A stretch of 64,000 nt of DNA from an uncultured Methanosarcinales archaeon (GCA_964604995.1 CAZSAD010000005.1:3221-67220); one strand, 5' to 3'. Positions 2,087 through 26,300 are shown, numbered from the stretch's first letter. Numbers and translations are program-made. Notes: generated from the letters alone by a model not told the origin.

Positions 2087-2091
2087 TCTTA

Positions 2092-3236: not shown

Positions 3237-3241
3237 GCAAA

Positions 3242-5121: not shown

Positions 5122-6195
5122 TTGAATACAACTTTTTACAGAAAAAAAGTAGGGGTTAGTGTAATCTTTTCTAAGCGCAAGCTTTCTAAAAATAATTTAA
5201 TTTCTTATATCCAAAATAGTTTAAAGTTAATTGGAAAAAAAGCACAAATCACACTTTTTATGATTTTAGGTTTTGTAATACTATTTTCTTTTGGGATTTT
5301 TTACATGATGAGAAATACTACTCCTGCAAATAATTTAGATGCGCAAAATAATAAGATTATTGCAAGCAAAGATGATTTATCCAATGTTAAATTATTTGTA
5401 CAAACATGCTTAAAAAAAGCTGCAGATAAAAATACAGATGCAGAACTTGGTTATTTATGGATATTTGGTGAAAATGGTGGCACAGTAAAATTTGAATATG
5501 ATACCACAATTTCAAAAAAATTTGACACAGTGACTTTATTTGATAATGCAATAAAAAATGTTTCAATATCCTATGATATTAATGCTATTACGCAGGTAGG
5601 TAATAAAATTATAAGGAACCAAACAGATATGGAAAAAGAATTGGGAGAATATATCTTGAATGATTTTTTAAATTGCTTTAATGAAGAATCAATAAAAAAT
5701 AGAACTGGCTATTTGGTTTTTTCTCCTAAAAATTCTGCAGCTGAAGCTAAAATAAATGTCACATTCAATTATAATAATGTAAATATCGCATTGCAATATC
5801 CAATGAATCTAACAAAGGGGGATAATTTTATCGAAATAAAAAACTTTGAAGTTGATATCCCATTAAGAATTAATCAAACTTTACAGATAAGGAATAATCT
5901 GTTAGATCAAATTTCTTCTTCTTCTTCTTCTTTTGACATTTCAAATACTGATAATTGCAATATCATTTGCGATAAAGCCTTTCCCAATTATGCAAAACAT
6001 GATTTTATAATAAAAGCAGAAAATTCAGTGTCTTCCATTACCTCTGCCTCAAACACTTATACTATAATACAAATAAATGATTATTTTTCAAATATAAATT
6101 ATTATAAAAAAACCTACAAATTTTCTTTTGCATTAAATGAAACAAGTTTATCATCATCTGATCATTTAGTAACTGGTATTTGCACATGCAATTAA
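5122..6195 (+). CDS. Hypothetical N-terminally anchored, pilin-like protein, Ser-rich; start uncertain
   Basis: IGKKAQITLFMILGFVILFSFGIFYMM resembles a class III signal peptide. The ORF track starts at TTG 5122; there is no in-frame ATG before the TM segment, so a non-ATG start is implied. Contains a (TCT)6 SSSSSS tract. Confidence 0.45.
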   Translation: MNTTFYRKKVGVSVIFSKRKLSKNNLISYIQNSLKLIGKKAQITLFMILGFVILFSFGIFYMMRNTTPANNLDAQNNKIIASKDDLSNVKLFVQTCLKKAADKNTDAELGYLWIFGENGGTVKFEYDTTISKKFDTVTLFDNAIKNVSISYDINAITQVGNKIIRNQTDMEKELGEYILNDFLNCFNEESIKNRTGYLVFSPKNSAAEAKINVTFNYNNVNIALQYPMNLTKGDNFIEIKNFEVDIPLRINQTLQIRNNLLDQISSSSSSFDISNTDNCNIICDKAFPNYAKHDFIIKAENSVSSITSASNTYTIIQINDYFSNINYYKKTYKFSFALNETSLSSSDHLVTGICTCN

Positions 6196-6218
6196 TTAAC
6201 AAACTCGAAAAAAAGAAA

Positions 6219-9200: not shown

Positions 9201-12200
9201 TTTGGAAACAACACTCAAATAATTAAAATACCTTTGCCAATTATTCACCCTCTTGAAACATTAAATTTTTCATTTAATTATACATCAGAAAATCCTGAAG
9301 AGTTCTATTTTAAAATAAAGGTTCAAACAGAAAATGATACAGATAATGGGAATAATTATGTATATAGTTATGTAAATTCAGTTTTAGCAGGATTTAATTT
9401 ATATGTCATGTCTGCAGAAAGAAAATATCCTACGCCTTCAGAAGAAGGTTTTGTAACACTTCATACAGAAAATCTTGGTAGTAGGCCTTCTTCACAGTTT
9501 ACAGCTTACCATACAAATATAAAAGCTCTTCAATCATTTACAACTTGGATAAATCAAAATTATTCAACAGAAATCGAAGGTGTGATTTATAATATTACAC
9601 TTCTTGAAGTAGTAAAAACACAAGAATATAGTACATTAGGAAAAGCAAAGTTCAAACTTAATTATAATAATGGAACAGAAATATTTGAACTTTTTGCAGG
9701 AGAAACTATTGAATTATCAACTGGCAAATTCTTTGGTTTGATATCTACTCCAAATACTTTTTATGCATATTCTCTTATTGGAAATCTTCGCTATGTGAAT
9801 TCATTTACAGTGCCACCAATACCAATAAAATCTAATTGGGTTAAAATTAATATTACTCTTAAAAATGATACTCTTGGAAACTATTATTCATTCATAAGTT
9901 TTTATCATGCAAACGATACTTCTTTAGAAGATAATTTTGCTGTTGTTTCTTATACAATAAATCCAGATGGTCCAAATATAAGAACATTTAGTGATTGGTA
10001 TTATTACACTACAACAATAAATGAAACAATTCCAATACCTTTTACTCTTGAAAATATTGGCAATAGATATTCAGGTGATGTAAATTTCAGAATAAATATA
10101 TCTGACAAATCGCAGTTTGATCCAAATTTTAACTCTACTTTGCTCTCAGAATTTACATTGCCAGGTCTTTACCCTGGAGAAACTTCTAGTTATTCCTATA
10201 ATTTTACCTGGCAAAAAAGTGGAAAATATTTCTTATTCATGCAAGCGAACATATCAAATGACACTAACCCTTACAATAATCTTCATTATGTTACAATAAT
10301 GGTTGTTAAAAACACAACTAATGTTTCAGCAGAATTAACACTTTCAACATTAAAAGATAATTATGAAATTGGGGAAATAATTAATTTAACTGATCCGCCT
10401 GCAATAATTAATTCAAAAGCAACGCTTTCTCCAATACAATTTTCAAATTCAATAACTGGCAATGCCATTAATTTACCAACTGAACAATTTACTAATTTTG
10501 ATGATACATCTATGTTTTATCAAACCAGAAAAAATTATCCAACTAATTATACAAATAAAACTTTAGAATACAATGGTTATATTGTAAAATTCAAAAAAGA
10601 GCCAATAACAAAACAAAAAGTAAATTTAGAAAATGAAATAATAAAGCAAAAACAAATCACTCAAACATTATCTTTAACAAATAACAATCAAATAGCTGCA
10701 AGTAAACCAAATCAACAAAATTCTTTATTATTAACTGCATCAGATAAATTACAAGTTAATACTAAATTAATAGCTTACCAAGCAGAAATACAATCAGAAC
10801 ACTCTTTAGCAAAAATAGATATTTCTCAAAAATTAAGCAAATCATTAACTAGTAAGATAACAGGGGAATTTACAAAAACATTCAATGGAATTGCACTAGA
10901 TATAACTGATGCAGAAGCCCAACAGTTAAAATCAAGTTTTTATGTTGAAGAAGTTTATCCTAATTACAAAGTCTATGCAACATTAATGGACTCTGTTCCA
11001 TTAATTGGTGCAGATAAAGTTTGGCAAATAAATTCTTATGGAACACCTTGCATCAAATATGGTGGAACTGAAGAATGCTTAACTGGCAAAGGTGTAACAA
11101 TTGCAGTAATTGATACTGGTGTTGATTATACTCATCCTGATTTAGGTGGCTGTTTTGGATCGGGCTGCAAAGTTGCAGGAGGATATGATTTTGTTAGCAA
11201 TGATAATAACCCAATGGATGATAATGGACATGGAACACATGTAGCTGCAACAGCAGCAGGCAATGGAACATTAAAAGGAGTTGCACCTGGTGCAACTATT
11301 TATGCTTACAAAGTTCTTAATAGTGGCGGCTCAGGTTCCACCAATAACATTATTGCAGCAATAGAACGTTCTGTTGATCCGAATAATGATAATGATTTTA
11401 CAGATCATTTAGATATTATTTCCATGAGTCTTGGAGGCTCTGGAACTCCTGATGATCCCTTAAGTCAGGCGGTAGACAATGCAGTTGACAATGGTGTTAT
11501 TGCAGTTATTGCAGCAGGAAATTCAGGTCAGTTCAATACACCATCTATTGGTAGCCCCGGTAATTCTCGAAAAGCAATTACAGTAGGTGCAACATATAAT
11601 AAACATTCTTATAATTATTATTCTGAAATAAAACTCAACGCCACAGTTGGCGGCAGTATGGGTGACACTGATTATTTTGAAAGTATACCTGTTCTTGGTT
11701 CAATGCCTACCAATGCAAATTATCAATTGCATGATTGGATATATGCCGGAACAGGAACCATATCTAATTTTACTTCTAAAAATTTCACAAATAAAATAGC
11801 TTTGATATATTTAGATGGTGTAGAATATCCAGAAATATTATTGGAAAGAGCAATAGCATCAAATGCATATGCTGTAATATTTTATTTCAATCCTTATCCA
11901 AATAAAATTACTGATTATTATTTTCCATTAGCATATGATATTGAAATTCCATCAGCAGTCATTGCTACTAATGATATTACTACTCTTTTTGAATATACTC
12001 AAATAAATCAACCAATAAGTCTTTATTTGAATATTTCATTGGTGACTAATATTACAGATGCAGATAAAGTGCCTTATTTTAGTTCACAAGGTCCATCATT
12101 CGATGAATTTTATGCAATTGGAATCAAACCAGAAATAGTTGCCCCAGGATATGATATTTGTGCTGCTTTGACTTACAATGGTGTTTTTCCAAAATATGAA

Positions 12201-15200
12201 AGAGCATGCGGCCAAGGACATACTCCTCTTTCAGGAACAAGCATGGCAACTCCTCATGTTTCAGGAGCATCAGCACTGCTAAAACAAGCACATCCTGATT
12301 GGGGAAACAAAGAAATAAAATCTGCTTTGATGGTATCTTCAACATCTCTTGGAGAAAATCCAAATATCTTTGGTACCGGAAGAATAAATGTTACATCAGC
12401 ATTACATCCAAGAATTTATTTAAGTGAACCCACTTTGAATTTTGGGCATATTAAATTTAACGACGAAAAAACAATAACATTTACTATAAAAAATTTATTC
12501 CCTGACCAAACTATAATAAATTTAAATTTTTCATCAGTTGATTCCAATGTTCAATTGATTGTCAGTCCAAATGTTGTCAATCTTAATCCTAACGAAGAAA
12601 AACAAGTTACAGTACACTTGAAATATTTGCACGATGAACCCTCTTACTTAACACCTCTTACAAATTATCTTACAATCCAAGGTGATACCAATGCAAAAAT
12701 ACCTTTATTATATTATAAAACTACAAACAGATCAATAGTTGGATTCACTCAAGACCCTGGAGAAATTTCTTCATCATTAATACCACGTTTCTATACATTA
12801 AAACTTAACGATATTAATAACGATGGATATGTTGAGATGTTAGGGGGCAGTAGTGCACTTTTTAGTTTTAACAATTTTGAAAATAATATTTCAGATTATA
12901 ATATTTTATATGCTCCCCCTTGTATTTATGATATGTATAGTGAAGGTTGTTATCCAGATACAGTTGAATCAATAGCTGTTGAAGATTTTAACCATGATGG
13001 AAATAAAGAAATTCTTGTTGGAGGGGTACAAGGATATCTTAGGCTTCTGGAAAAAAATTATAATCCTAAAAATTTGACAAAAACAATAGTTAGTTCAGAA
13101 AACTTTACTTTTGGAAATTATAATTTTACGACATCTATAAATCCATATGGTCAATTAATAGTATCTGCTAAAAATGTTGACAATCCCTTATTTATTACTT
13201 TTTTTAATCTTAGAATTAGTGAAAGTGAATATGATAGTGAATATGGATACATTGAGAATATTATTTTTCATTTGGTAAGTTTGCAAAATGGCATTGCAAT
13301 AGTTGAATTACAAGAAAATGAATATAAACCAACTATGCTAAATAAGTTTAGAGAACAATTATGGGCAATGGACTCAGCAGATTTTAACAATGATGGTTGG
13401 CAGGATGTTGTTTTCTCTTATTCTCCTTTGCCTTTTGTTTATAATGTTTCCATTCTTTTTAATGATGGGAACGGAAATCTAAACAACCTTTATACAATAT
13501 ATAACCTATATGGTAATCAAATTTCTGGTTTAACTGTCGGAGATGTTGATAATAATGGATTTAAAGATGTAATAATAGGATATTCTATTTCTCCTAATAG
13601 CATCTATAAAACCTATGGGGTAACAAAATTACTTAAAAATAATGGCAACAACAAGTTTTATGATAGTGGAGTTATATCTACATATGGCACAGGAATCTCA
13701 GGTCATCCAGAAAATGATATTAATCCAAGAGTTGTACTAGCTGACTTTGACAATGATGGCAATCTTGAACTTGTGATTGGAGATAACAGTGGAAAAATTA
13801 GGATATTAAAGAAAGACAATACTGGCAGATATAATGAAGATTTATTAATAAATAAAGGCCTGCTTTTTGACTTTGGTCAATTATCATGGGGAGTTGCAGC
13901 AAGCGATATTAATAATGATGGTAAAATTGATTTGGTGGTTGCTTCTGCTTCAAGAAATGATTTTTATAGATTTTCACTTTATACTAAATTGAATAATGGT
14001 AATTTTACTAATTTTGCACCAGTTCGTCCAAAATCACAAATAATAAACAATGGAACAATAAATATAACTGGATATTTGTTTATGGATGTTGAACAATTCT
14101 TAGGCAATTCTTGGCAAGGATACCAAATGGTTTATGAAGATACTTTACCAAGAACAATTCCTGCAAATAATGTCCAAGCATTAGATACTATTTGGAACAA
14201 TTATAATATTTCAATTAATAATCCTGGAAAATACAGAGTTCATGCAGAGTTTAGAGATGCATATAGTGGAGAGCCAATTCAAACAACAACTGGCTATCTA
14301 AATAATTATTGGGAGTTTAATGTTAGTGGAACAATTCCAACTTTGCCTTCAGCACAACTAACTTTATCAACATTAAAAGATAATTATGAAACTGGAGAAA
14401 TAATTAATTTAACTGATCCACCAACTGGAGAAATAAACACTGCAAATGTGAATAGACTCGTAAAAAACAATGAAGATTCAATTGCTTTGCTAAATATTTT
14501 AGAAGATGCTGCTGCAAAAAGCAAACAGGAAAATAAATTTTCAGAAGGAATTATTGAACAAACCCCTACCTTTTCAAATCTTCCAAAATATGTTAAAGGA
14601 GAGTTAATAGTAAAACTAAAAAATGATATTTCAAATAAGATTAGTGCCAATGTTGTCAAAACAGATATCAGTACCTTAGACAGTTTAAACAGCAAATATG
14701 GCGTTAAGAATATTGAGAATGTTTTCCCTGCTAAACATGAAAGCTTTTTTGAAAGTTTGGCAAATAATGTAAAACAAACATTCAACATAGAAGTTCCTTC
14801 AAGAGAGTTAAATAAAGTATACAAAATTAAAATTAATCAAAATACAGATGTTGAAAAAGTTGTAAAGGAATACAGTGCAGTTTCTGAAGTTGAATATGCT
14901 GAGCCTAATTATATTTATTATACTAATTTTGTTCCAAATGACAAGCTTTATTCACAGCAATGGTCTCATCAAATAACAAGTGCTGAGATTGCATGGGATA
15001 CTGAAAAAGGAAGCTCTTCTACAATCATTGCAATTATAGATACGGGAGTAGATTATAATCATGAAGATCTTAAAACTAATATATGGCACAACCCCAAAGA
15101 AATTCCAAATAATGGAATCGATGATGATAATAATGGATATGTAGACGATACAATTGGATATGATTTTGTTGATTATCAAGAACTAGTTGATTATTGCAAT

Positions 15201-18200
15201 GCAAATCCCAATATCTGCAGGATATCTCCAAGAGAAGATTATCTCAAATTAGACAATGATCCAATGGATGTTGTTGGGCATGGAACACATTGTTCAGGGA
15301 TTGCTGCTGGAGTTGGCAACAATAATTTGGGGATAATAGGAATATGTCCTTCATGTAGCATAATGCCAGTTAGGGCAGGAATGTTAATTGAAATAAATTC
15401 AAATGGCCAATATTATCAAAGTGGTGGCCTTAGTGATGATGCAATTGTAAATGGGATTAAATATGCTACAGATAACGGAGCTAGAGTAATAAGTATGAGC
15501 TTTGGAGGAAGGGAATATTCACAACTTCAGAAAGATATGATTGATTACGCATACAGCAAAGGTGTTGTTCTTATTGCTGCTGCAGGAAATGAGAATACCG
15601 CTGAAAAACCATACCCTGCAGGTTATGATAATGTGCTTTCAGTTGGTGCAACAGATGAATTAGATAATAAAGCATCTTACTCAAATTATGGGGATTGGGT
15701 TGATGTAGCAGCGCCTGGAAGCAACATACTTAGTACAGTACCAACAAAAATAAGTTACAGTTCAGAGCTTAAACTTGGATATAGTTTATTTGATTCCTAT
15801 CCTTTTGAATATTCTGCAATAGTGGAAGATGAAAGTGTTCATGGCATGTTGGCTAATGCAGGTAATGGAACAATAGAAGAACTAAATAATGTTAACCTTA
15901 CTGGAAAAATAGTTCTTATTAAAAGAGGAGATATTTCATTTCATGATAAAGTTGAAAATGTTTATAATAAAGGTGCAATTGGTGTTATAATCTATAATAA
16001 TGCACCTGGTAGTTTTATAGGCACGTTAGTTAATCAATCAAAAATACCTGCAGTAAGTGTAAGTGAGGTAGTTGGAAATTCTTTGCTTTATTATGTTAAT
16101 AGCTCTTTGATAAATATTTCAATAAAAGTAAATAAGATAACAGAAAATTATGAACTTGAAAGCGGAACTTCTATGGCAACACCTTATGTTGCAGGAATTG
16201 CAGGATTGTTGCTATCGAAAGAACCTAGCCTAAAAAATAGTGAAGTTTATGCTAAAATTATTACCGGAATAGATTTGATTCCTGATAAAACTATAGGTCA
16301 AGGTAGGGTCAATGTTACAAAAGCATTACAAGAAAATCCTAATTCTATTATAACTCTGGAAAATGTGAATATTAATGCTAACACTGAATATAATGAGATA
16401 AATCCCGGAGCAGCAGTTGATATTTATTTTACATTAAAAAATATCGGCGCAAATGCGGGAGATGTTCAAGGAAGTATTATAATTGATAATTCTTATGCAA
16501 CTGTATCTGAAGGGAATATTGATTTTGGAACAATGGATACACTTGCAATAAGAAAAAACACTGCTCCATTTATAATAAAAATAAATAATAATACTCCTAA
16601 AGGAACTAAAATAAATGTTAAGTTAAAATTGACTTCTGCTAATTCTAACTATTCACCTGAATTTGATGTACCAATATATACTTCAAAAACAATAGTTGTT
16701 GGCAAGGATAATCAAAGTGATTATAAAAACATAGGTGATGCTGTAAAAAATGCAAATAGTGGCGATATAATTTTTATCAAAAATGGAATTTATAATGAAA
16801 CTATTACAATAGACAAAAATAATCTAAAGATTATTGGAGAGTCAAGAGATAATACTATCCTTAGTACTAATAATTCATTTGGTGTAGCATTATATATTGC
16901 AGCTGCAAAAAATGTTATTATTGAAAGTATTACATTTGAGCCAAACTCACAATTAAATATTTATAGGGGATTCTCACAAGAGGGGATATTAATATCTGGA
17001 CAAAGCAGTATTTTACCTTCAAGCAACATAAAAATCAGAAATTCTTCATTTAAAAATCTGGACTATGCAATAGATTTGAATGGTCCAGGTTACATAGAAA
17101 ATGTTACTATTTCAAATTCTACATTTATTGATAATTATGAACCTTTGATAAGAAGTATTAGTATGGGTAATAAGATTATAGATGTTTCTTTTGAGAATAA
17201 TTATGTAATAATCAACAATCTTTCAAAATGGATACCTGATGATAGCGGAGGAAATGCTTATGCTTTTTTCAATGATGGTTTGTCCAGCATAGATAATTTT
17301 AGAATAATGGGGAATCATATAATTGATAATGTTAGCAGGGAGCCTAAAAATGCAGTTTCTTTTTTGCATGTATTTATGTTAAACTTTGATGTGGATACTA
17401 AAGATTTAAATAAAAATATTTCAAATAATATATTTGAAAAAACTTATCCTGGAAATTCAAGTACTGCTTTCATACTTGGCGGAAAAAATAATTATTACAT
17501 GTCAAACAACAAATTTGTCGGAAATTATCAACATCTAATTTATAGTCTCGGTTCAAATGTAATAATTGATGGAACAAAACTACAGGACAATATTGGCTCT
17601 GAAGGGGATTATACATATTCTTGTTATTATTTTGGACCAGGCAGTCTTTTAGTTTCGCATAGTGAAATAATAAACGGTACCTTGGAAATTGATTCATGTT
17701 CTGTAAATGATAAAATAAATTATTCAGTTAATTCAAATAGGTATTCTGAGTATACTGGTGAAGATATTAATGGGGATGGAATAGGTGATACTCCTCAGAA
17801 GATTTATGACCAAAATGGAAATTTTATAACACAGGACAATACACCATTAATTTTATTTTCAGGTATAAAATTAACTCGTCCAAAATCACAAATAATAAAC
17901 AATGGAACAATAAATATAACTGGATATTTGTTTATGGATGTTGAACAATTCTTAGGCAATTCTTGGCAAGGATACCAAATGGTTTATGAAGATACTTTAC
18001 CAAGAACAATTCCTGCAAATAATGTCCAAGCATTAGATACAATTTGGAACAATTATAATATTTCAATTAATGATCCTGGAAAATACAGAGTGCATGCGGA
18101 ATTTAGAGATGCATATGGTGGAGAGCCAATTCAAACAACAACTGGCCTTCTAAATAATTATTGGGAGTTTAATGTTAGTGGAACAATTCCAATAATTCCA

Positions 18201-21200
18201 TCAGGAGAATTAAATTTATTCACATCAAAAAATAATTATCTACAACAAGAGTCAATAATACTAACTAGTAATTCAAAAATAGAAAATACTGGTTTAATCC
18301 CAATTACCGGCTATTTATCTGCTAATATCGAGCAATTTAACATTTATTATCAAATAAACGAAGAAACTGATAAAAAGAAAATTGGGAATGAATACAATTT
18401 CTTAGAACTTGGAGAGGCAATTAATGCAACTGGTCAGACAATATTCTCATCAAATGATTTAAATGCACTTTCAAATGAAACTTTCCAAAATTCTCTTGGA
18501 ACATTTACATATACTCAAAAATTAGAATTACCTTCTGCAAAAGTTGTTTTTGAAGAAGATACTGATCAATCAAATGATCCAAGCTTATACTTAAAATTCG
18601 ATGCAAATAAACCAGCATACACCTACACTTTGCAATTTACTCCTCCAATTGAAAGCGGAATCATAAATCAAACTCTTAAAGATCTACAAGGACATAATTT
18701 GCAATTATTTGACAAAACTTTTCAAATAATTTCTGCAAAAAATGAAAGTAACAAATTATCCTTAAATTTATTACAAACAGAATTAGTTGATATCTTACAA
18801 GAAGGCTCAACAAAAACTTATACTCACAATGGAAAAGACTACCAAGTAACAGCAAGTTACATCTCAAGTAGCGAAGCAAGGTTTACAATAAATGGTGAGA
18901 CAACTGATAAATTATCGGAAGGAGAAACTTACACTTTAGTCGATGGAACAAGAATTGGTGTTTTTGATATAATAACTAATTTTATTGGGGAAAATTTATC
19001 AAATAATTTTGTTCAATTTGGTTTAGGAGTAAATAACTTAAAAATAACTGATTACAATCCTTCAACAGCTAATTGGGATGCAAAAGTAGCTGATGGCAAT
19101 GAAGATTTAATGAATTTAAAAGCAGATATTATAGTTACAAGTTTTTCAAATGGTATTACTAAAATAAAAGAATTAAAATTTAAATATCTTCCTTCAACAG
19201 ATCTGCATGTACCAATTAGTGGAAAATTAAGCACAATAGCAGAGTATGAAGAAAGTGAACTAGGAAATGTTCTTGTCAATGGTTTTGATGTTCAATTAAA
19301 AGGATTTAATGAAACTCAATTAAATTGGGAAGCAATAAAAATCTTTAGCAGTTCAAGTCTTAGTTATAATTTAATATTTAGAAATAGAAATGGACAAACA
19401 TATAACATTCCTGTTTGGGGATACGATAATTCATCTAGAAAAATTAAACTAGGTTATAGGGATGATTATTCATTTAAAAATTTAATAATAAATGAAGCAA
19501 TACCTATCTTAACTAATGAATATTTTATATTAAGCCCATCCTCAACACAAAAAACACACATCTTCCAATTCAATAGTGTAAACACAAATGATAACACTTT
19601 CAAAATAAAAGATTTAATGGAAGGTGGTTCAACAATAGAAGTAACTAATGCAACATCTTTTGTTGTTGATGGAACAGCATATTATGCTTATTATAATGGT
19701 TCAGGAAGTGATGCAAAGATTTATGTTGATTTAAATGGCGATGGAATAATTCAACAAGGTCAAAAAGTAGACAAAATATATACCTTTTATTCTGGAAGCG
19801 ATGGATATTTGCAGCTTATTCAAAATAATATTTCAACAAATGCCTCAGGAATTTTTGTAACACAAAAAACTCAAAACCTGCCTCAAAATAATTTCCAAGA
19901 AAAAATAAAATGGAAATTTTATTTTAATTACACTTCAAATAAAATAATGCTTGATAGTCCCATCAATGATTTTGGATCTTATGATTCAATGAAAAAATTA
20001 GATTCACTAGACAAATATGTTGGTCTAACTTACTATGGCGCTTATGGCGACTATGATTATGGAAATGCACAAAGTCCATTATTAGAATTCCAATATCCCA
20101 ATCAACAATTAGAAATACTTGTTTATGTTATGGGTAATAATTATCCTACACCTCAAGCAATTTCAAGTTGGCAACATTATAGCACTATTATAGATGAAAA
20201 CTTTTCAAGAACAGTTCCTGCAAATAATGTCCAAGCATTAGATACTATTTGGAACAATTATAATGTTTCAATTAATGATCCTGGAAAATACAGAGTTCAT
20301 GCAGAGTTTAGATATGAATATGGTGGAGAGCCAATTCAAACAACAACTGGCCTTCTAGAAAATGTTTGGGAGTTTAATGTTAGTGGAACATCATCACAAT
20401 ATCAAATGCAAATAACCTATCCACAAAATAATTCCATAATACTTAGTAGTTCTACTCAAGTATTAGTAACTACAAATACTCCTTCTTCTTGCGATTATTC
20501 ATACATGGTAGTTTCTTCAAATGGTGTAGGTGTGGGCTCACCAACTATATTTATGTCAACAACAGATGCATATCATTTTTCTGCAACAATTAATAATTTA
20601 CTCTATGGTGATAATGTTACAGTTCATGCATATTGCTATTCTAATGAGGGTAATGTTTATGCAACCTCTTCAGTATTTTTTAGAGTTCAAATTTCTTCGC
20701 AATGTGGAAATAATTTATGTGAAGGCAATGAAACAGTGCAAAGCTGTCCAATTGATTGTAGGGAAGTAAACTATCCAGAATACTGCCCACAATATAACAA
20801 AGCAAATAATGATAATAGTAACCATGGACCAGGGGGAAACTTGGGAAATTCTTTATCACTTTCTACAAAAACAAATTTTGATACATTAAGTGAAGAAACT
20901 TTAAAGAAAATTATTATTCAAGGTGATATTCAAAAATTTAAATCATTAAAACTTTCAGTGCAAATGATAAGTCCTGGAATTTTTAGTGTAACTTCTAAAA
21001 ATCAAAGAATCGATGTAATGCAGCAAAAACTGCCTGAAATAGCAACACTAATGGATAGCAATGGAAATAAATTTGTTGTAAATCTTGCTGTAGTTTTTAA
21101 TGAGCAATATGCAAATGGTTACATTGTTGAGTTTGAAGGATTGTCATTAGTTGAATACAAAAAACAACTTGAATTAAATATCAAAGATATGCAAACCAAA

Positions 21201-23366
21201 GCAAATTCTCTAAAACAAAAAATTGATTCTAGAACTGGAATATCTAAAATACTAAATTTAGTAGATAGCCCAAGATTATCAATAGCTAAAAATTCAATAA
21301 ACACTGCAGAATTACAATTACCAAAAGAAATTTCTAAACATAAAGGGGAATTAAATACTAATGTCAATTCATTTAGAAAATCAGTTAGTAAAATAGATAA
21401 TTCTCTTGATGAAACAACAAAAATAAAAAAACAATATCAAACAGTATTTAATGGGGCATTCTTAGAAACTGATGCTAAAACTGCAATGAAAATTGCAGAA
21501 TTAAAAGGTGTTAAATCAATCAAAGCAAATAAAAAAGTTAATGTTGTATTAAATGAAAGTTCAAAAGTTATCAATGCAGATGATGTATGGCAAACAATTG
21601 ATGACAATGGTTATAACATAACAGGATTTGGTGTTAAAGTTGCAGTTATTGATACAGGTGTTGATTACACTCATCCTGATTTAGGCGGATGCTTTGGACA
21701 AGGTTGCAAAGTTGAAGTAGGATATGATTTTATCAATAATGACAATGACCCAATGGATGATCAGGGTCATGGCACACACGTTGCAGCAACAATAGCTGGA
21801 ATTAACACAATTCTAAAAGGCATTGCTCCTGATGCAAAAATATATGCTTACAAAGTTCTTGATAGCAGTGGTTCAGGCGGATCAGACGGTATAATTTCTG
21901 CAATGGAATACTGCGCTGATCCAAATCAAGATGGTAATTTTTCTGATCATGTTGATATTGCATCTTTAAGTTTAGGAGGCAATGGAGATCCTGATGACCC
22001 CATGTCTCAAGCAGTAGACGGTGCAACAGATGCAGGTGTATTATTGGTAATTGCAGCTGGAAATTCAGGACCAGATGTAGGAAGTGTTGAAAGTCCAGGA
22101 ACTGCAAGAAAGGCTTTAACAGTTGCTGCATCAAATAAATGCGATGAACTTGCAGGATTTAGTTCAAGAGGTCCAGTTGTTTGGAATAATGGCACGCTTC
22201 TAAAACCAGATATAATGGCACCAGGTGTTTCAATTTGCGCAGCGCAGTATGATTCTTGGTTTAGTGATAGAAGATGTTTAGATAATGAACATATTGCAAT
22301 CTCGGGCACAAGTATGGCAACTCCGCATGTTTCAGGTGTTGCAGCATTATTAAAACAAAAATATCCTAATTTATCTCCTACAGAATTAAAATCTTTATTG
22401 AAGCAAACTAGCTATAATCTTGGTTACACACTATTCGAGCAAGGAAATGGAAGGTTAGATGCAAAAAGAGCAATAGAAGCAAAATTAATTGTTACACCCA
22501 ATTCATTCTCTGATGATTTTACTGAAAAAACACAAGCAACCTGGACTTTAAATATTAAAAATATTTTTAATAATTCTGTATTAGTAACTATAAAATATCC
22601 AAATCCAAAAATCCTAAATTTAGCTGATGTTACTCCAACAACTTCAATCAATATTACAATTATTGGTCCAACATCTTTAAATTTAGATGCTAATTCAATA
22701 CAAAGCTTTGATGTAAATATTACCTCCTTGCCAAGTGATTTTGAAGGATATCTTTTAGGTGAAATCCAAATTTCAGATGGCAGCAATATTTATTCAGTGC
22801 CTTATCTAATCTCTAGTTTTTCTAAATTGGTAGTGTATGTTAATAAAAATGAGATAATGAAACAGTATTCAATTTTTGCTTATCGTGATGATTTTGGCTG
22901 GGCTAGCAGTATTTCTAGTAGTGATGAAATAGCGAATGGTGTTCACAAATTCAATAGGATGCTTTCTGGAAATTATTCAGTTGCAATTGCAGGCGATTTA
23001 GAAGATTGGAATAATGAATATCTTTTGTTTGGAAGAGCACATGTTCCAATGAAAGGAACTGGTGAGACCTTAATTAGTTTTGATGATGCAAGACCCTTTA
23101 CAATCAAAGCAAGATCTCTAAATAATACTCCTTTATTTTTAGTGCAGTCTGAAAAAAGATTTGAGTATAGGCTTGCAGACGGACAAGGCGTTACTTACAC
23201 AATGTCTGATCCAATTATTGGTGATAGAAAAGTTTACATCACTAATAAACCTGAATCCGGGCCAGATTTAAACATTATATTGGATTATATTGGTGTACCT
23301 TATTTGGAATCAGAAATTTCCAATAACTATCAAAAATTATTGAATGAAAATTCATTAGCAAAATAA
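6219..23366 (+). CDS. Giant (about 5716 aa) secreted multi-domain protein with three complete subtilisin-like (S8) serine protease modules
   Basis: Signal peptide MKLKQILIIVILILFSSIILLS at ATG 6219 (the track's 6180 start is TTG). TSP3-like DSDSDGVLDEDDLCPD; PEGA-like domain (~6720-6930); PKD-like domain (YDPEGMPLTYTWLIE..., ~7190-7440). S8 #1 ~10830-12420: I9-like propeptide FNGIALDITDAEAQQLK; VIDTGVDYTHPDLGG; HGTHVAAT; GTSMATPHVSGASALL; PA-like insert. FG-GAP-like repeats (DFNHDGNKEILVGG, DFDNDGNLELVIGD, DINNDGKIDLVVAS) ~12780-13960. S8 #2 ~14590-16330: IIDTGVDYNHEDL; GHGTHCSGIAAG; GTSMATPYVAGIAGLL; PA insert GKIVLIKRGDISFHDKVENVYNKGAIGVIIYNN. Parallel beta-helix region ~16700-17600. S8 #3 ~21430-22470: VAVIDTGVDYTHPDLGGCFGQGC; GHGTHVAAT; GTSMATPHVSGVAALL. 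Confidence 0.85.
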   Translation: MKLKQILIIVILILFSSIILLSNTKNSSARILDSDSDGVLDEDDLCPDTSFFAPVDFNGCSCDQKSVNNTCVPDNNECTGYCGGPKAQCNYPLTGDLLNQGLISCNATYCENNIVHTFPQTMSSKYCVDGNLFNRTSCQETLSYLKDCGKIPLPINQTINLTNQTNQTIQLGYLIIESNPSSADIYLNNIYQNKTPRNFELKSGTYRLNLIKEDYIPYSSNIKINSGQLTDLFINLNPEIINPSTFTCNDTDGGIYFETFGKVALCKYSNSTIDYCLNYSDTCGLAENGKTLTEFYCQNSQVKNMTTVCSGPCKYGACSQQSNLLPVAVISRPMLGDLTYVNEPIYFSGIKSYDPEGMPLTYTWLIENTKSFNVTTTHTFLTTGIKFATLIVSDGTYVVNTSISLNIQEKINGTNQTNETNTSLCTLKTALWSTLAAYEGDNISLFVYGPNCQNKQLNITIWRRDFWLDEYIDSIPYQSSNSLGLFNASWKVIWKNSGWNLFDNTKYYFVAQIKNSEEKIISPENLDVKKSSSNNILITEPGNYKLQMNWYDTSGRTWLSVGDGVFGKLLQAAKNGDLYVDVIIEKNFAINDKLLLTDGTNNIEVLNYSRIKLLRPTTAKNPLLNDSLNDSFQTIVRIYLNTPIQNNYLLNAIVRQYSLDYSGNLQNLNDTIDLGYLQYGATPITSHLTQWISIFNGYNRTIFPVVYSNDSNYYYVNQLNSSKWDLTFDDGVRFDFPYNDGNFQIVKSNTIPSSPSFDVELYGASIHYVDFLNPSRNFTFWLKNNIQENNSPYLGFVYGLTNTSDEWISGEFGVIYYKGIPYNITIKRSDDYTLPVNLTISKGTTSVSYLLYQKQLTFPLFDGLAFYIQSWPVGYNLTILSVGKLVYNLNFTVPVIQYGETKKINGTLPAVAPGFYLVMFDASHQNDIAPWNNFQNPTYYVQKQYIDLAVNIPPYDYLIETNTTTKFNFTISNLGTIDAKNSTITINKTSNNYNFGNNTQIIKIPLPIIHPLETLNFSFNYTSENPEEFYFKIKVQTENDTDNGNNYVYSYVNSVLAGFNLYVMSAERKYPTPSEEGFVTLHTENLGSRPSSQFTAYHTNIKALQSFTTWINQNYSTEIEGVIYNITLLEVVKTQEYSTLGKAKFKLNYNNGTEIFELFAGETIELSTGKFFGLISTPNTFYAYSLIGNLRYVNSFTVPPIPIKSNWVKINITLKNDTLGNYYSFISFYHANDTSLEDNFAVVSYTINPDGPNIRTFSDWYYYTTTINETIPIPFTLENIGNRYSGDVNFRINISDKSQFDPNFNSTLLSEFTLPGLYPGETSSYSYNFTWQKSGKYFLFMQANISNDTNPYNNLHYVTIMVVKNTTNVSAELTLSTLKDNYEIGEIINLTDPPAIINSKATLSPIQFSNSITGNAINLPTEQFTNFDDTSMFYQTRKNYPTNYTNKTLEYNGYIVKFKKEPITKQKVNLENEIIKQKQITQTLSLTNNNQIAASKPNQQNSLLLTASDKLQVNTKLIAYQAEIQSEHSLAKIDISQKLSKSLTSKITGEFTKTFNGIALDITDAEAQQLKSSFYVEEVYPNYKVYATLMDSVPLIGADKVWQINSYGTPCIKYGGTEECLTGKGVTIAVIDTGVDYTHPDLGGCFGSGCKVAGGYDFVSNDNNPMDDNGHGTHVAATAAGNGTLKGVAPGATIYAYKVLNSGGSGSTNNIIAAIERSVDPNNDNDFTDHLDIISMSLGGSGTPDDPLSQAVDNAVDNGVIAVIAAGNSGQFNTPSIGSPGNSRKAITVGATYNKHSYNYYSEIKLNATVGGSMGDTDYFESIPVLGSMPTNANYQLHDWIYAGTGTISNFTSKNFTNKIALIYLDGVEYPEILLERAIASNAYAVIFYFNPYPNKITDYYFPLAYDIEIPSAVIATNDITTLFEYTQINQPISLYLNISLVTNITDADKVPYFSSQGPSFDEFYAIGIKPEIVAPGYDICAALTYNGVFPKYERACGQGHTPLSGTSMATPHVSGASALLKQAHPDWGNKEIKSALMVSSTSLGENPNIFGTGRINVTSALHPRIYLSEPTLNFGHIKFNDEKTITFTIKNLFPDQTIINLNFSSVDSNVQLIVSPNVVNLNPNEEKQVTVHLKYLHDEPSYLTPLTNYLTIQGDTNAKIPLLYYKTTNRSIVGFTQDPGEISSSLIPRFYTLKLNDINNDGYVEMLGGSSALFSFNNFENNISDYNILYAPPCIYDMYSEGCYPDTVESIAVEDFNHDGNKEILVGGVQGYLRLLEKNYNPKNLTKTIVSSENFTFGNYNFTTSINPYGQLIVSAKNVDNPLFITFFNLRISESEYDSEYGYIENIIFHLVSLQNGIAIVELQENEYKPTMLNKFREQLWAMDSADFNNDGWQDVVFSYSPLPFVYNVSILFNDGNGNLNNLYTIYNLYGNQISGLTVGDVDNNGFKDVIIGYSISPNSIYKTYGVTKLLKNNGNNKFYDSGVISTYGTGISGHPENDINPRVVLADFDNDGNLELVIGDNSGKIRILKKDNTGRYNEDLLINKGLLFDFGQLSWGVAASDINNDGKIDLVVASASRNDFYRFSLYTKLNNGNFTNFAPVRPKSQIINNGTINITGYLFMDVEQFLGNSWQGYQMVYEDTLPRTIPANNVQALDTIWNNYNISINNPGKYRVHAEFRDAYSGEPIQTTTGYLNNYWEFNVSGTIPTLPSAQLTLSTLKDNYETGEIINLTDPPTGEINTANVNRLVKNNEDSIALLNILEDAAAKSKQENKFSEGIIEQTPTFSNLPKYVKGELIVKLKNDISNKISANVVKTDISTLDSLNSKYGVKNIENVFPAKHESFFESLANNVKQTFNIEVPSRELNKVYKIKINQNTDVEKVVKEYSAVSEVEYAEPNYIYYTNFVPNDKLYSQQWSHQITSAEIAWDTEKGSSSTIIAIIDTGVDYNHEDLKTNIWHNPKEIPNNGIDDDNNGYVDDTIGYDFVDYQELVDYCNANPNICRISPREDYLKLDNDPMDVVGHGTHCSGIAAGVGNNNLGIIGICPSCSIMPVRAGMLIEINSNGQYYQSGGLSDDAIVNGIKYATDNGARVISMSFGGREYSQLQKDMIDYAYSKGVVLIAAAGNENTAEKPYPAGYDNVLSVGATDELDNKASYSNYGDWVDVAAPGSNILSTVPTKISYSSELKLGYSLFDSYPFEYSAIVEDESVHGMLANAGNGTIEELNNVNLTGKIVLIKRGDISFHDKVENVYNKGAIGVIIYNNAPGSFIGTLVNQSKIPAVSVSEVVGNSLLYYVNSSLINISIKVNKITENYELESGTSMATPYVAGIAGLLLSKEPSLKNSEVYAKIITGIDLIPDKTIGQGRVNVTKALQENPNSIITLENVNINANTEYNEINPGAAVDIYFTLKNIGANAGDVQGSIIIDNSYATVSEGNIDFGTMDTLAIRKNTAPFIIKINNNTPKGTKINVKLKLTSANSNYSPEFDVPIYTSKTIVVGKDNQSDYKNIGDAVKNANSGDIIFIKNGIYNETITIDKNNLKIIGESRDNTILSTNNSFGVALYIAAAKNVIIESITFEPNSQLNIYRGFSQEGILISGQSSILPSSNIKIRNSSFKNLDYAIDLNGPGYIENVTISNSTFIDNYEPLIRSISMGNKIIDVSFENNYVIINNLSKWIPDDSGGNAYAFFNDGLSSIDNFRIMGNHIIDNVSREPKNAVSFLHVFMLNFDVDTKDLNKNISNNIFEKTYPGNSSTAFILGGKNNYYMSNNKFVGNYQHLIYSLGSNVIIDGTKLQDNIGSEGDYTYSCYYFGPGSLLVSHSEIINGTLEIDSCSVNDKINYSVNSNRYSEYTGEDINGDGIGDTPQKIYDQNGNFITQDNTPLILFSGIKLTRPKSQIINNGTINITGYLFMDVEQFLGNSWQGYQMVYEDTLPRTIPANNVQALDTIWNNYNISINDPGKYRVHAEFRDAYGGEPIQTTTGLLNNYWEFNVSGTIPIIPSGELNLFTSKNNYLQQESIILTSNSKIENTGLIPITGYLSANIEQFNIYYQINEETDKKKIGNEYNFLELGEAINATGQTIFSSNDLNALSNETFQNSLGTFTYTQKLELPSAKVVFEEDTDQSNDPSLYLKFDANKPAYTYTLQFTPPIESGIINQTLKDLQGHNLQLFDKTFQIISAKNESNKLSLNLLQTELVDILQEGSTKTYTHNGKDYQVTASYISSSEARFTINGETTDKLSEGETYTLVDGTRIGVFDIITNFIGENLSNNFVQFGLGVNNLKITDYNPSTANWDAKVADGNEDLMNLKADIIVTSFSNGITKIKELKFKYLPSTDLHVPISGKLSTIAEYEESELGNVLVNGFDVQLKGFNETQLNWEAIKIFSSSSLSYNLIFRNRNGQTYNIPVWGYDNSSRKIKLGYRDDYSFKNLIINEAIPILTNEYFILSPSSTQKTHIFQFNSVNTNDNTFKIKDLMEGGSTIEVTNATSFVVDGTAYYAYYNGSGSDAKIYVDLNGDGIIQQGQKVDKIYTFYSGSDGYLQLIQNNISTNASGIFVTQKTQNLPQNNFQEKIKWKFYFNYTSNKIMLDSPINDFGSYDSMKKLDSLDKYVGLTYYGAYGDYDYGNAQSPLLEFQYPNQQLEILVYVMGNNYPTPQAISSWQHYSTIIDENFSRTVPANNVQALDTIWNNYNVSINDPGKYRVHAEFRYEYGGEPIQTTTGLLENVWEFNVSGTSSQYQMQITYPQNNSIILSSSTQVLVTTNTPSSCDYSYMVVSSNGVGVGSPTIFMSTTDAYHFSATINNLLYGDNVTVHAYCYSNEGNVYATSSVFFRVQISSQCGNNLCEGNETVQSCPIDCREVNYPEYCPQYNKANNDNSNHGPGGNLGNSLSLSTKTNFDTLSEETLKKIIIQGDIQKFKSLKLSVQMISPGIFSVTSKNQRIDVMQQKLPEIATLMDSNGNKFVVNLAVVFNEQYANGYIVEFEGLSLVEYKKQLELNIKDMQTKANSLKQKIDSRTGISKILNLVDSPRLSIAKNSINTAELQLPKEISKHKGELNTNVNSFRKSVSKIDNSLDETTKIKKQYQTVFNGAFLETDAKTAMKIAELKGVKSIKANKKVNVVLNESSKVINADDVWQTIDDNGYNITGFGVKVAVIDTGVDYTHPDLGGCFGQGCKVEVGYDFINNDNDPMDDQGHGTHVAATIAGINTILKGIAPDAKIYAYKVLDSSGSGGSDGIISAMEYCADPNQDGNFSDHVDIASLSLGGNGDPDDPMSQAVDGATDAGVLLVIAAGNSGPDVGSVESPGTARKALTVAASNKCDELAGFSSRGPVVWNNGTLLKPDIMAPGVSICAAQYDSWFSDRRCLDNEHIAISGTSMATPHVSGVAALLKQKYPNLSPTELKSLLKQTSYNLGYTLFEQGNGRLDAKRAIEAKLIVTPNSFSDDFTEKTQATWTLNIKNIFNNSVLVTIKYPNPKILNLADVTPTTSINITIIGPTSLNLDANSIQSFDVNITSLPSDFEGYLLGEIQISDGSNIYSVPYLISSFSKLVVYVNKNEIMKQYSIFAYRDDFGWASSISSSDEIANGVHKFNRMLSGNYSVAIAGDLEDWNNEYLLFGRAHVPMKGTGETLISFDDARPFTIKARSLNNTPLFLVQSEKRFEYRLADGQGVTYTMSDPIIGDRKVYITNKPESGPDLNIILDYIGVPYLESEISNNYQKLLNENSLAK
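14025..14340 (+). repeat. Intragenic repeat R1 (~315 nt, ~95% identical to R2)
   Basis: cgtccaaaatcacaaataataaacaatggaacaataaatataactgg... through ...gttagtggaacaattcca; encodes RPKSQIINNGTINITGYLFMDVEQFLGNSWQGYQMVYEDTLPRTIPANNVQALDTIWNNYNISIN.PGKYRVHAEFRDAY.GEPIQTTTG.LNNYWEFNVSGTIP. Confidence 0.85.
17878..18193 (+). repeat. Intragenic repeat R2, copy of R1 with about 8 substitutions
   Basis: Direct read-by-eye alignment with 14025-14340. Identity is lost on both sides (ttaact|cgtcca upstream, ccaataattcca downstream). Confidence 0.85.
20204..20390 (+). repeat. Intragenic repeat R3, partial third copy (~190 nt) mosaic between R1 and R2
   Basis: agaacagttcctgcaaataatgtccaagcattagatac...gttagtggaaca. 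At the variable positions it carries R1-type and R2-type bases alternately. Confidence 0.8.
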
Positions 23367-23396: not shown

Positions 23397-26300
23397 ATGA
23401 AACAAAGCAAAACAAAAATCAGTAGCAAAAATAACAAACTGAAAATAATTAATAATCAAATTTTCATTTTATTATTCATATCTTTATCACTTATTTTCTT
23501 AACTGGTTGCCCATCAGGCGAGGGGATTTATGAAACATCAACAGAAGAATATAATGCAGGCTGGGTTTTGCATAATATTAATGATTCAACATCAACAACT
23601 CTTGAATATAATTCTTCAGAATTAATGATTTATAATGCTTCATTTAATTTTCCAGCAGATAGCCCATTAGATTATGCACATTCTTCATTTTGGATGTACC
23701 CTTATAACGCTAAAGATGATCCAATATTTCTTACTTCAATAGTTTCATTTCCAGTACCCTCAAAAAGAACATATTATTATTACGGTTCAACAGGTGGAGT
23801 CAATTATGATTCTACTTGGGGTACTTTAGAAGATACTTACATAACTTATGAGTATTCTTTTGAACAAGATGAAACACCTTGGGAATTTAAACAAACAGAA
23901 CAAATATTTGGTTATAATTATTATTATACTGCAAGAAAAGTTGTAGAAAAGCAATATGGTATTGCACCATATAAAATTGCAAATTTTGCAGGAAATAGCT
24001 ATAGTTTTTGGGTAGAAGGAAAACTTATTAAAAATCAATTATTGGAAAATCCAGCATATTTAAACAAAGCTTCGCAAGTAGGATTTCCTATTCCTACTCT
24101 AAAAATATCACACAACGGTAATATTACATTAGAGCGAAATTTAGCACAGTATTATCCTCCACCTGACAATGTTTATTCGTGGAATTATTACAATGGCTAT
24201 TTTTATTTTTGGGGGATAAATAATTCGGGTATATATCAAGCAGATATGATTATCCCTACATATTATCCAATTTGGAGCAATGTTGAGCAAACTGTTCAAT
24301 TTTTACTCGAGCAAGATTCAAATAATAATGACCAACTGGCACTTATGTCAAAAATTCCAAAACTTGAATTTTTTTATGTTTCTCCTTATTTTACTTCAGG
24401 TGAAACAATTTTTGTAGTAATCAATTTTTCAAATGAAGTAAATATATCCGCTGTGCAACTTCAATTTTCAACAGATGATATAAATTATGAAACTGTTGTT
24501 TTATCTGGAAACAATAATTATTATTACGCAAATTATACAGCTCCATTTTATGCAGAAAAACTTGATTCATATATTTTCGCAACAACCTATCAAGGATATA
24601 ATTATACTTTAAAAATTGAAAATGTGGCACTTAAAAAAGTGCAGCCAATTATAACAATAACTGGTCCAGATTCTGTTAGCTTATTAGATGAAACAAATTA
24701 TTATGTAGACTGCGAATACACTTTTAAAAATGAACAAAAAAAATGTAATTATGCATTGTTAAATTTAAATCTAAATAATGTGCCAATAAAAAAATATTTC
24801 CCATCTTACAATAATCTAACTACTTTTTCTTTGAAAATTCCAATTAACGCTACTAATAATTTTACACTTTCTTCTTGGTTCGAAGGTAGTGGGAATTTAC
24901 TTGGTGCACAAAGTCAAAATTACCCTGTATCTATTCAAAGGTATGATCATGATTTAAAAATGATTAATTATAAAGTACATTCAAAAATTGTAAACCAAAA
25001 CAATACAATTACTGCAACTATTGCAAATATTGGTATAAATCCAGAATATAATGTTCCAGTAATTTTAGCACCTGAATCAAAATACGGACCAAATGGATTT
25101 TATAGTATATCACATATCCCAGTTATTAATCCTAGAGAAATTGTTGAAGTAAACCTTACATTCATTCCAACTTATAGTGATACTATTTATTTAAATTTAA
25201 CTGTTAATGCATTACTTGATACTAATATTTTCAACAATAACATTTCACTCGAAATCAACCCCAAATTCAATGGGAGCAATATCTATCCGAGAATTAACTA
25301 TCTTGTAAATCCTTTAATTATAAATGTCCCTAATCAAATAAGATTAGATATCCCAAATTCAGGATTGAAAACAGCAACAAATGTTTCATACAAATTTTAC
25401 ATATTTGATTTTATTTCTCCTGATGTTATGTTTGAAGGAACTACTAATTGGAATTATAATAATGTAAATTACTTAATTAATTTATCTTCACCTACACTTA
25501 ATACACATCATGTCACTATAAAATACAATAATCTTATTATTTCAAAACAATTATTTGATAAGGAAGTTCTTGAACTAGACAATAATATTTGCTTTGTAAT
25601 ATATGAAATGTTCAATGATTCAACTATTAACTTTTACCATATTCAATTTAAAGAGTGTATAGTAACTAATTCAAATTTACAGGATATTATTCCAACCTTG
25701 GACAGACAGCCTGTTTATTCTACACTAGTTAATTATACCCCTACTAAAGTTGGATTTTACACATCTTATGTCTCTTTAATTAATAATGAAGAATATTTAT
25801 TGGATAATTTCGATGCTACCTCTTTCCAAGTTACAAAGTCAGGTTATGATTTAAATATTCATTCTTACTTTCAAATACCTCCAACTATCCAATCTAACAG
25901 TAATTTAACTGTTAGGGTTCGGAATGATGGAAATTTAAAATCTCCCCCTAATACTACTACAAAAATCAGGGACGTAATAAATATTAATTCTTGGGATATA
26001 ATAACAAGTACTACTAAAACTATTTTTTATGAGGGGATTACTTATCAAATTACAATCATCCCCCATGTAGAAATTCCATATTTCTTTTCAATCAACATCT
26101 CTTATCTTAATATCACTGAAAATTTTGATTTATACATATCACAAAGTTATAAACTTAACAATTCAGTTATTTTCGCAATTAGTTACTCTTTTAATAGTTC
26201 TTGGTTTGAAATTATATTTGGTAAAGAACATTTCTCTAAAGAGTTTTTAGTTCCTGAAATAAAACCTGGGGGTTATATTGAAACGCAAATTGAAATTCCA

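Follow-up and report, generated by a model that had tools for sequence, protein, structure and literature searches.

Repeated domains of surface proteins, like duplicated bacterial genes, are known to undergo concerted evolution through ectopic (intrachromosomal) gene conversion. The horizontal evolution of protein repeats is said to have been analyzed by Persi et al. in 2016 (PMC5120217). To our knowledge, recombination between dispersed repeats is hardly documented in uncultivated archaea. Here, we describe three near-identical DNA repeats (R1, R2, and R3) dispersed within a single giant gene of an uncultured Methanosarcinales archaeon, in a 64,000-nucleotide (nt) stretch of one strand (GCA_964604995.1 CAZSAD010000005.1:3221-67220; hereafter the window), with positions counted from its first nucleotide. 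A second point of comparison is provided by the Periscope Proteins, bacterial surface proteins in which tandem domains are highly identical in DNA and variable in copy number, the high DNA identity driving length variation (Whelan et al., 2021; PMC8201768). The near-identity of the three repeats is probably the result of ectopic intragenic gene conversion, that is, non-reciprocal homologous recombination, among old copies of a domain. Concerted evolution by ectopic gene conversion is a known type of process and is mechanistically unsurprising; its setting here is little studied.

The repeats lie in a single uninterrupted open reading frame (ORF) at 6186–23366 on the plus strand, which is the strand of all features described below unless otherwise stated. 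Established by translation and Pfam matches, this ORF encodes 5,726 residues from an ATG at 6186, or 5,728 from a mechanically assigned TTG at 6180, from which residues are numbered here; an NCBI record (P0155), from a contig of 67,557 bp, holds the identical 5,726-residue protein with its start at the ATG. The predicted product is a giant secreted multi-subtilase archaeal surface protein. From its N-terminus, it comprises a signal-peptide-like segment, PEGA, PKD, and CARDB domains, an I9 propeptide with the first subtilase (S8#1), FG-GAP repeats, and a first copy (M1) of the module that contains the repeats. These are followed by a propeptide with the second subtilase (S8#2) and a PA domain, a pectinesterase-like beta-helix, a second module copy (M2), a third copy (M3) split by a 605-residue insert, the third subtilase (S8#3), and a C-terminal domain.

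R1 (14024–14342) corresponds to M1, a complete immunoglobulin (Ig)-like domain of ~106 residues (2615–2721) that scores 76 bits against a profile hidden Markov model (HMM) built solely from sequences outside the window. R2 (17876–18194) corresponds to M2, likewise a complete Ig-like domain (residues 3899–4005), recognized by repeat comparison and modeled by AlphaFold2 with a predicted local distance difference test (pLDDT) score of 89.2. R3 (20206–20390) is the candidate conversion tract within the C-terminal part of M3 (M3-C), extending from strand beta4 to beta7. R1 and R2 share 97% nucleotide identity over 319 nt and 95% amino acid identity (blastn E-value 2.5e-160), and R3 is about 93.5% identical to each of them (E-value 1.2e-75 in both cases), with high R1/R3 identity confined to R1 positions 14149/14150–14333. 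The longest exact runs between copies are 165, 50, and 40 nt. Because the offsets between copies (3852 nt from R1 to R2, 2205 nt from R2 to R3, and 6057 nt from R1 to R3) are all multiples of three, the copies share one reading frame.

A previous inspection of the DNA alone (the sequence-only reading) had reported three near-identical copies with about eight differences between R1 and R2. The same copies were recovered in four ways, by repeat search, MAFFT alignment, in-register comparison, and a blastn comparison of the sequence with itself, and all agree; the count proved to be exactly eight in the interior (14024–14340), at 14189, 14220, 14240, 14246, 14249, 14265, 14295, and 14296, with two more at the 3′ edge (14341–14342). 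A six-frame HMM search recovered no further copies in the 64-kb window. Also borne out was the description of the other paralogous parts of the gene as strongly diverged: S8#1 and S8#3 share 71% nucleotide identity with a synonymous divergence (dS) of 0.99, S8#2 shares 28–44% amino acid identity with either, and the CARDB copies are ~30% identical to one another. The S8#1/S8#3 pair and their propeptides, with dS of 0.9–1.0, provide a calibration within the gene.

R3 had been taken for a partial copy, a description that is too simple: it forms the C-terminal portion of a third module, and the N-terminal strands of that module are located 1.9 kb upstream (18270–18338). The outside-only profile matches residues 4030–4055 (SNSKIENTGLIPITGYLSANIEQFN), ~25 residues past the end of R2, and then residues 4662–4736; the two matches are exactly complementary, covering family positions 2–26 and 27–104, and the break between them falls at the beta2-beta3 hairpin turn (model residues 28–29). 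M3 consists of an N-terminal part, M3-N (18270–18338), an insert of ~605 residues, and M3-C (20163–20390). M3-N carries strands beta1–beta2 (NSKIENTGLIPITGYLSANIEQF; family HMM positions 2–26, matching residues 4031–4055), and the insert, delimited by the complementary HMM matches, occupies the beta2-beta3 hairpin (18339–20162). The head of M3-C (SSWQHYSTIIDENF; 20163–20205), which the HMM built on outside sequences aligns starting at the conserved Trp, is old and diverged and lies just 5′ of the conversion tract.

One line of evidence for conversion is the contrast between the R3 tract and the remainder of M3. As compared with M2, M3-N shows 62% nucleotide identity, 57% amino acid identity, and a proportion of synonymous differences (pS) of 0.80; random in-frame pairs average 31% ± 6% nucleotide identity, with a maximum of 51% in 2,000 draws. 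M3-N is an evident, though old, homologue of M1 and M2. Over the 15-codon M3-C head plus its boundary codon (20163–20207), identity to M2 amounts to 47% at the nucleotide level and 27% at the amino acid level (dS about 1.2). Across the last 61 codons, by contrast, dS falls to 0.00 versus R1 and 0.11 versus R2. Counted as synonymous differences between M3 and M2, ~16 of 22 sites differ in the old part versus 4 of 39 in the tract (Fisher's exact test, p = 1e-6). A step of this kind at synonymous sites cannot be caused by selection at the protein level.

A corresponding step occurs on the 3′ side of M1 and M2. The 'LSTLKDNY' motifs that follow M1 (TLPSAQLTLSTLKDNYETGEIINLTDPP) and M2 (IIPSGELNLFTSKNNYLQQESIILTSNS) share 62% nucleotide identity with dS of 0.52; these 3′ flanks are homologous but old, which places the end of the near-identity within an older paralogous unit. 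Tract boundaries therefore lie within homologous sequence and coincide with a synonymous step both in M3 (from pS 0.80 and dS ~1.2 to 0–0.11) and at M1/M2 (from 0–0.11 to 0.52). The motif 3′ of M1 (LSTLKDNYETGEIINLTDPP; 14348–14422) forms the head of the S8#2 propeptide unit and is an old paralogue both of the motif after M2 and of a copy 5′ of the S8#1 propeptide unit (10325–10399), to which it is 89% identical in nucleotides. This 89% patch was considered as a further conversion tract and rejected (dS about 0.4–0.5); its dS of 0.42 indicates an old conserved motif under constraint that was not recently copied.

Comparison with a relative suggests that the module positions go further back in time. 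The closest full-length architectural homologue found, a 6,948-residue protein from a JGI metagenome (P0019), resembles the window protein in having three subtilase units, three modules, of which two are interrupted at the loop where M3 is split, and the same C-terminal domain, as well as an 'ATLKD.Y..GE.IELTDPP' motif before propeptides and Cys-rich 'CGNGIC...CP.DC' linkers. It differs in a partly different domain order, in an identity to the window protein of 23–58%, and in modules that are ~40% identical to one another, that is, not homogenized. Downstream of M1, residues 2600–2850 of the window protein are collinear with residues 2627–2879 of P0019, followed by an S8#2-type unit; downstream of M2, residues 3927–4189 are collinear with residues 3962–4240. 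This downstream collinearity implies that the modules at the M1 and M2 positions probably predate the split between the two lineages. The two P0019 copies that can be compared at full length are ~40% identical, as against 95% amino acid identity between M1 and M2, whose best match outside their own protein is 39–40%. Copies within the window genome are therefore far more alike than the corresponding copies of the relative, with the caveat that this relative is distant and collinear in its downstream flanks only. The sequence-only reading had inferred a recent duplication; the positions of the modules look old, and it is their sequence that looks young.

The distribution of differences along R1 and R2 is uneven. 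The first 165 nt of R1 (14024–14188) are exact in R2 (17876–18040), whereas the next 154 nt contain all 10 differences (best-split Fisher's exact test, p = 0.0006; permutation-corrected p = 0.0055), and this exact stretch appears to be the youngest homogenized segment. All eight interior differences fall where a third near-identical copy exists (p = 0.012–0.021). The pattern suggests, on few sites, either a recent event between the 5′ parts of M1 and M2 or an exchange of the 3′ part with M3, either of which would be a form of conversion. There were probably at least two conversion events, differing in age and extent: an older one would have homogenized the C-terminal half of all three modules (beta4–beta7, about 185 nt), and a very recent one, between M1 and M2, would have covered at least the first 165 nt.

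The mosaic of bases in R3, from which the sequence-only reading had argued for gene conversion, contributes nothing to this case. R3 does mix R1-type and R2-type bases as described, agreeing with R1 at 14189, 14240, 14246, and 14249 and with R2 at 14220, 14265, and 14295–14296. With three sequences, however, each difference between R1 and R2 leaves R3 matching one side, so such alternation is uninformative, and the 4:4 split is the expectation for three independently mutating branches. In the shared tract, the R1 and R2 branches each account for 4 nt and the R3 branch for 8–9. The sites, in the order A B A A A B B B, show no clustering (runs test, p = 0.37–0.54), and exact maximum-descent tests of the 3SEQ type, taking each copy in turn as the 'child', returned p = 0.57, 0.35, and 1.0, although with 8–12 informative sites they have little power. 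The pattern itself fits plain divergence, and conversion is upheld instead by the synonymous step, the flanks, the comparison with P0019, and the distribution of differences.

Substitutions accumulated since homogenization differ among the copies. In the shared tract used for the branch analysis (14150–14333, 18002–18185, and 20207–20390), the changes private to M2 are four synonymous and no non-synonymous, those private to M1 are no synonymous and three changed codons (D to N, G to S, and L to Y), and those private to M3 are no synonymous and six changed codons. The heterogeneity between the nine non-synonymous codons of M1 and M3 combined and the four synonymous changes of M2 is significant (Fisher's exact test, p = 0.0014). 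M1 and M3 are identical at all ~39 synonymous sites yet differ at 12–13 non-synonymous positions. Such counts would fit purifying selection on M2 together with relaxed or positive selection on the other two copies, but they are too small for a firm claim. Following homogenization, M2 would then have been kept under purifying selection, with silent changes, while M1 and M3 would have gained amino acid changes only.

As an alternative to gene conversion, a module-sized piece may have been copied or inserted once or twice in the recent past and then diverged by point mutation only. Such a history would account for the 5′ edge of R1 and R2, which falls exactly at the domain start with unrelated sequence upstream (FG-GAP repeats in one case, the beta-helix in the other), and for the 4:4 pattern of variable sites, which fits plain divergence; very recent large intragenic duplications also seem to occur in the family, a candidate being an exact 950-residue repeat in another giant member. 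We nonetheless regard it as unlikely. The 3′ flanks of R1 and R2 are homologous but old (62% nucleotide identity, dS of 0.52), the old split module to which R3 belongs is synonymously saturated elsewhere, and P0019 already has modules at the corresponding positions. In addition, uniform mutation following a duplication would not yield no differences in 165 nt against 10 in 154 nt.

The repeats might also be an artifact of short-read metagenome assembly, arising from mis-joins, from collapse or expansion of repeats, or from a consensus that mixes copies or strains. The source is a metagenome-assembled contig, the 165-nt exact repeat exceeds usual k-mers, and the organism occurs in several groundwater data sets, making strain mixtures possible. 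An independent contig, the sole other assembly found for this region (L002; ENA ERZ5996431 NODE_14253), is identical to window positions 14494–18987 except for one single-nucleotide difference at 15035, and it carries R2 with every R2-specific base, both junctions, 3.4 kb of upstream sequence, and 0.8 kb of downstream sequence. This contig has only 2x coverage and is itself chimeric, but at its ends (1–794 and 5289–5450, which do not match the window) and not at the repeats. Its first 640 bases have a G+C content of 44%, and the first ~794 bases encode bacterial-looking fragments of gltX (glutamyl-tRNA synthetase) and cdd (cytidine deaminase); the gene caller fused this chimeric start to the archaeal protease, which produced the predicted protein P0020. 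Because this contig covers neither R1 nor R3, those two copies are without independent assembly support; exact-protein lookups of two neighboring genes, made in search of other assemblies of R1 and R3, returned nothing, and a second full-length copy of the gene was not found.

Several features of the window argue against artifact all the same. The ORF of 5,728 codons is unbroken through three copies and six junctions with domain boundaries intact, and the copies have not been collapsed, since they differ from each other. The independent contig reproduces R2 with its flanks. Furthermore, a wrong pairing of exits from the repeat would delete or circularize the 3.85-kb segment between R1 and R2 and would not give a collinear order matching that of P0019. 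We therefore consider an assembly origin very unlikely.

Selection acting without recombination, either purifying selection on the protein or constraint from an overlapping DNA or RNA signal, is a still poorer explanation of the near-identity and seems extremely improbable. The family does have conserved positions (Y18, W31, G69, Y71, R72, and F99), and all four changes private to R2 are synonymous. However, dS is 0–0.11 inside the tracts as against saturation in adjoining parts of the same domain, and distant homologues conserve the N-terminal strands best rather than the converted C-terminal half. The private changes of M1 and M3 are all non-synonymous, the opposite of strong constraint, and the window contains no Rfam family and no tRNA. 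Programmed diversification, either by a diversity-generating retroelement with its template and variable repeats or by silent-cassette antigenic variation, is scarcely credible, even though near-identical repeats separated by a few substitutions do occur here in a surface protein and diversity-generating retroelements are common in uncultivated groundwater archaea: Pfam scans of window ORFs of at least 150 residues detected no reverse transcriptase, integrase, or transposase, the substitutions (T/A, A/G, T/G, G/A, TA/CT, G/T, and C/A) are not confined to the adenines of one copy but affect every base in either direction, each copy is translated as part of a single ORF and none is a silent cassette, and the fold is Ig-like, not that of a C-type lectin.

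Several points also weigh against intragenic gene conversion among old copies as we have set it out. The 185-nt three-way tract is without statistical mosaicism (p = 0.35–1.0), which makes any number and order of events provisional. The argument for two ages of conversion depends on 10 differences, and restricted to synonymous ones it becomes four versus none (p about 0.06–0.1); the N-terminal strands are moreover the most conserved in the family, which alone is enough to lower non-synonymous change in the first part of the module. The correspondence with P0019 is confined to the downstream flanks, with differing upstream contexts and an overall identity of 23–29%. Independent assembly support exists for R2 only. 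Lastly, the comparison covers assembled sequences of this protein and of distant homologues, from which 'ongoing' conversion, as had been proposed, cannot be shown.

The unit that is repeated is a real domain, an Ig-like beta-sandwich without a name. AlphaFold2, applied to the R2 copy with a 43-sequence alignment, predicts a seven-stranded beta-sandwich (pLDDT 89.2; predicted template modeling score 0.79); from the single sequence of R2 with its flanks, it returned a pLDDT of only 30. Querying Pfam with the module at E ≤ 10 gave chance-level matches only, its score against CARDB (Pfam PF07705) did not reach the gathering threshold, and a sequence-profile search of the PDB identified nothing significant. 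No relative was detected when GTDB genome contigs were scanned for the module. A word-indexed protein search with a single module likewise found nothing, and with a seven-sequence profile it found only six fragments. In contrast, when 1.84 billion representative proteins were searched exhaustively with HMMER, 740 members were recovered at E ≤ 1e-3 and 450 at E ≤ 1e-10. Many of these proteins are 4,000–7,000 residues long with two to five copies, and many are 1,500–2,100 residues long with a single C-terminal copy.

The module can be compared with CARDB and other Ig-like beta-sandwiches found in archaeal or bacterial surface proteins, such as the CARDB domain of Pyrococcus PF1109 (PDB 3idu) and the Ig-like domains that occur in GH2 enzymes. 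As compared with CARDB-type domains, the module has a signature of its own (NxG.TNI.GYL.M.V...W...PGxYRVxA) and tolerates large insertions in the beta2-beta3 hairpin. The one locus found in a scan of metagenomes, at 35% identity (L001), encodes a 3,994-residue protein with four diverged copies, 27–34% identical to those of the window, and near-identical DNA repeats were not found among these four. The L001 copies align from the same 'R-x-K-S-x-I-x-N-x-G' residues as R1 and R2; because the alignment of distant homologues begins at these residues, the 5′ edge of R1 and R2 can be equated with the start of the domain. Across distant homologues, the N-terminal strands are the best conserved part.

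Homogenization of this kind is not the rule in the family. Among ~37 proteins with more than one copy, copies from the same protein typically share 30–50% identity, and a copy usually finds its best match in another protein; the window protein (95%) is among about five with identity higher within than between proteins. Other such exceptions show 81% (P0146), 74% (P0016), and 67% (P0011) module identity within the protein. The giant member mentioned above (P0008) has an exact 950-residue internal repeat (residues 1517–2466 and 3204–4153), one module included, which may reflect a duplication within the gene in the very recent past or else an artifact of assembly.

In P0019, two modules are split at the same loop as M3 (residues 2350–2735 and 3770–4033) by inserts of roughly 300 and 165 residues, and one module is unsplit. 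The module tolerates nested insertions of about 165–605 residues in the beta2-beta3 hairpin, with one such case in the window protein and two in P0019. The 605-residue insert of M3 has no Pfam match; its first ~165 residues are homologous to residues 4106–4276 of P0019. A stretch upstream of R3 (LLEFQYPNQQLEILVYV) was considered as a diverged N-terminal module half and rejected, the true N-terminal part being at 18270–18338; it resembles a P0019 sequence (TIAWYYPDNQKEANVYL) by eye, and BLASTP left both stretches unaligned.

The subtilase units interspersed with the modules are intact. All three S8 regions match Pfam PF00082 (E-values of 1e-62 and 2e-113), and each retains the D[TS]G, HGTH, and GTSMA motifs with complete Asp/His/Ser triads. 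The catalytic core of S8#1, from the Asp to the Ser motif, spans 11112–12248 (E-value 1e-62); that of S8#2, which contains the PA insert, lies between R1 and R2 (15039–16178); and that of S8#3 lies 3′ of R3 (21651–22319). The giant protein also contains 134 N-X-S/T sequons.

The window has a low G+C content (~29%) and derives from an archaeal chromosome, with genes for eIF2-gamma, a NOG1-type GTPase, ribosomal protein L10e, and triose-phosphate isomerase, as well as a small ORF whose signal peptide is of class III (archaeal pilin type). Scans of the 64 kb for tRNAs and Rfam families gave zero matches. The eIF2-gamma protein also occurs in two groundwater metagenome assemblies, and its closest counterparts among GTDB representative genomes are only 60–69% identical. 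One metagenome contig (L008; JGI 3300009296, Ga0103681_1037129), compared with window positions 34947–37035, has an identical eIF2-gamma gene with a different upstream neighbor: a radical-SAM N-terminal fragment in this contig, a ribosomal protein S6e gene in another (L007), and a 135-residue ORF in the window. The difference in the first of these reflects either a rearrangement or another chimeric contig.

Repeats of other kinds occur elsewhere in the window. A second giant ORF (23397–32528; 3,043 residues), in which CARDB is the only Pfam match, follows the first and contains an in-frame tandem duplication of 1.75 kb (25843–27587 and 27595–29336; period 1,752 nt; 79% nucleotide identity), an older intragenic event in a neighboring surface-protein gene. 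Upstream of the giant genes (16–3793) are six small same-strand ORFs of 150–228 residues, one with a class III signal peptide; the first two are paralogous (3–225 versus 788–1010, 81% identity). On the minus strand, an ORF at 54846–56612 contains identical 171-nt tandem repeats (55958–56128 and 56135–56305; period 177 nt) that encode the same ~57 residues twice (TPPSKELDPTQWNLDPDRNKWVIKNDNDGKGTYTLDKNGGKVYLGTNSNNQQIFSN) in a protein without a Pfam match, owing either to a very recent duplication or to an assembly effect. This ORF overlaps the next (56524–60747) by 89 nt.

The sequence-only reading had also proposed the repeats as hotspots for deletion or expansion. With their exact runs and in-frame offsets, this is a reasonable inference from the DNA, and recombination between copies could also support deletions of 1,284, 735, or 2,019 codons. 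A more elaborate idea, which we put forward as speculation and consider unlikely, is that the modules are kept alike as recombination sites to delete and restore protease cassettes, with adaptive diversification of M1 and M3 after each homogenization. Were this true, recombination between R1 and R2 would excise 1,284 codons, comprising S8#2, the PA domain, and the beta-helix, and recombination between R2 and R3 would excise 735 codons, eliminating the 605-residue insert and restoring an unsplit module.

If gene conversion among old copies is the correct explanation, the locus offers a clean sequence-level case of intragenic conversion in an uncultivated archaeon. It also shows a possible route for the modular remodeling of a giant multi-protease surface protein, in which repeat recombination would remove or fuse protease cassettes. 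For annotation and assembly, such repeats are sites where short-read contigs may break or become chimeric. The un-named Ig-like family, with at least 740 representative members, no Pfam model, and a common occurrence in giant archaeal-type surface proteins, may, together with its tolerance of hairpin insertions, be of more use than the conversion itself.

Compared with described cases of ectopic gene conversion, the locus shares the expected features: paralogues in one genome are far more alike than the copies of a relative, tracts end sharply within homologous sequence, and synonymous sites are homogenized. It is known here from sequence, and it differs from known cases in that the three domains are dispersed in one 17-kb archaeal gene and that one of them is split, with only its C-terminal half overwritten. 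Like the Periscope Proteins, the window protein is a large surface protein in which a folded Ig-like domain is repeated at high DNA identity (97% and 93.5%, with runs to 165 nt), and in the Periscope Proteins intragenic recombination and length change are proposed to proceed from such identity. The tandem array by which that group is recognized is absent from the window protein; unlike its bacterial counterparts, this archaeal protein has three dispersed copies, 3,852 and 2,205 nt apart from start to start, with protease, PA, and beta-helix units between them and no stalk. Should the modules indeed serve to delete and restore protease cassettes, the system would represent an archaeal, cassette-level analogue of the length variation of Periscope Proteins.

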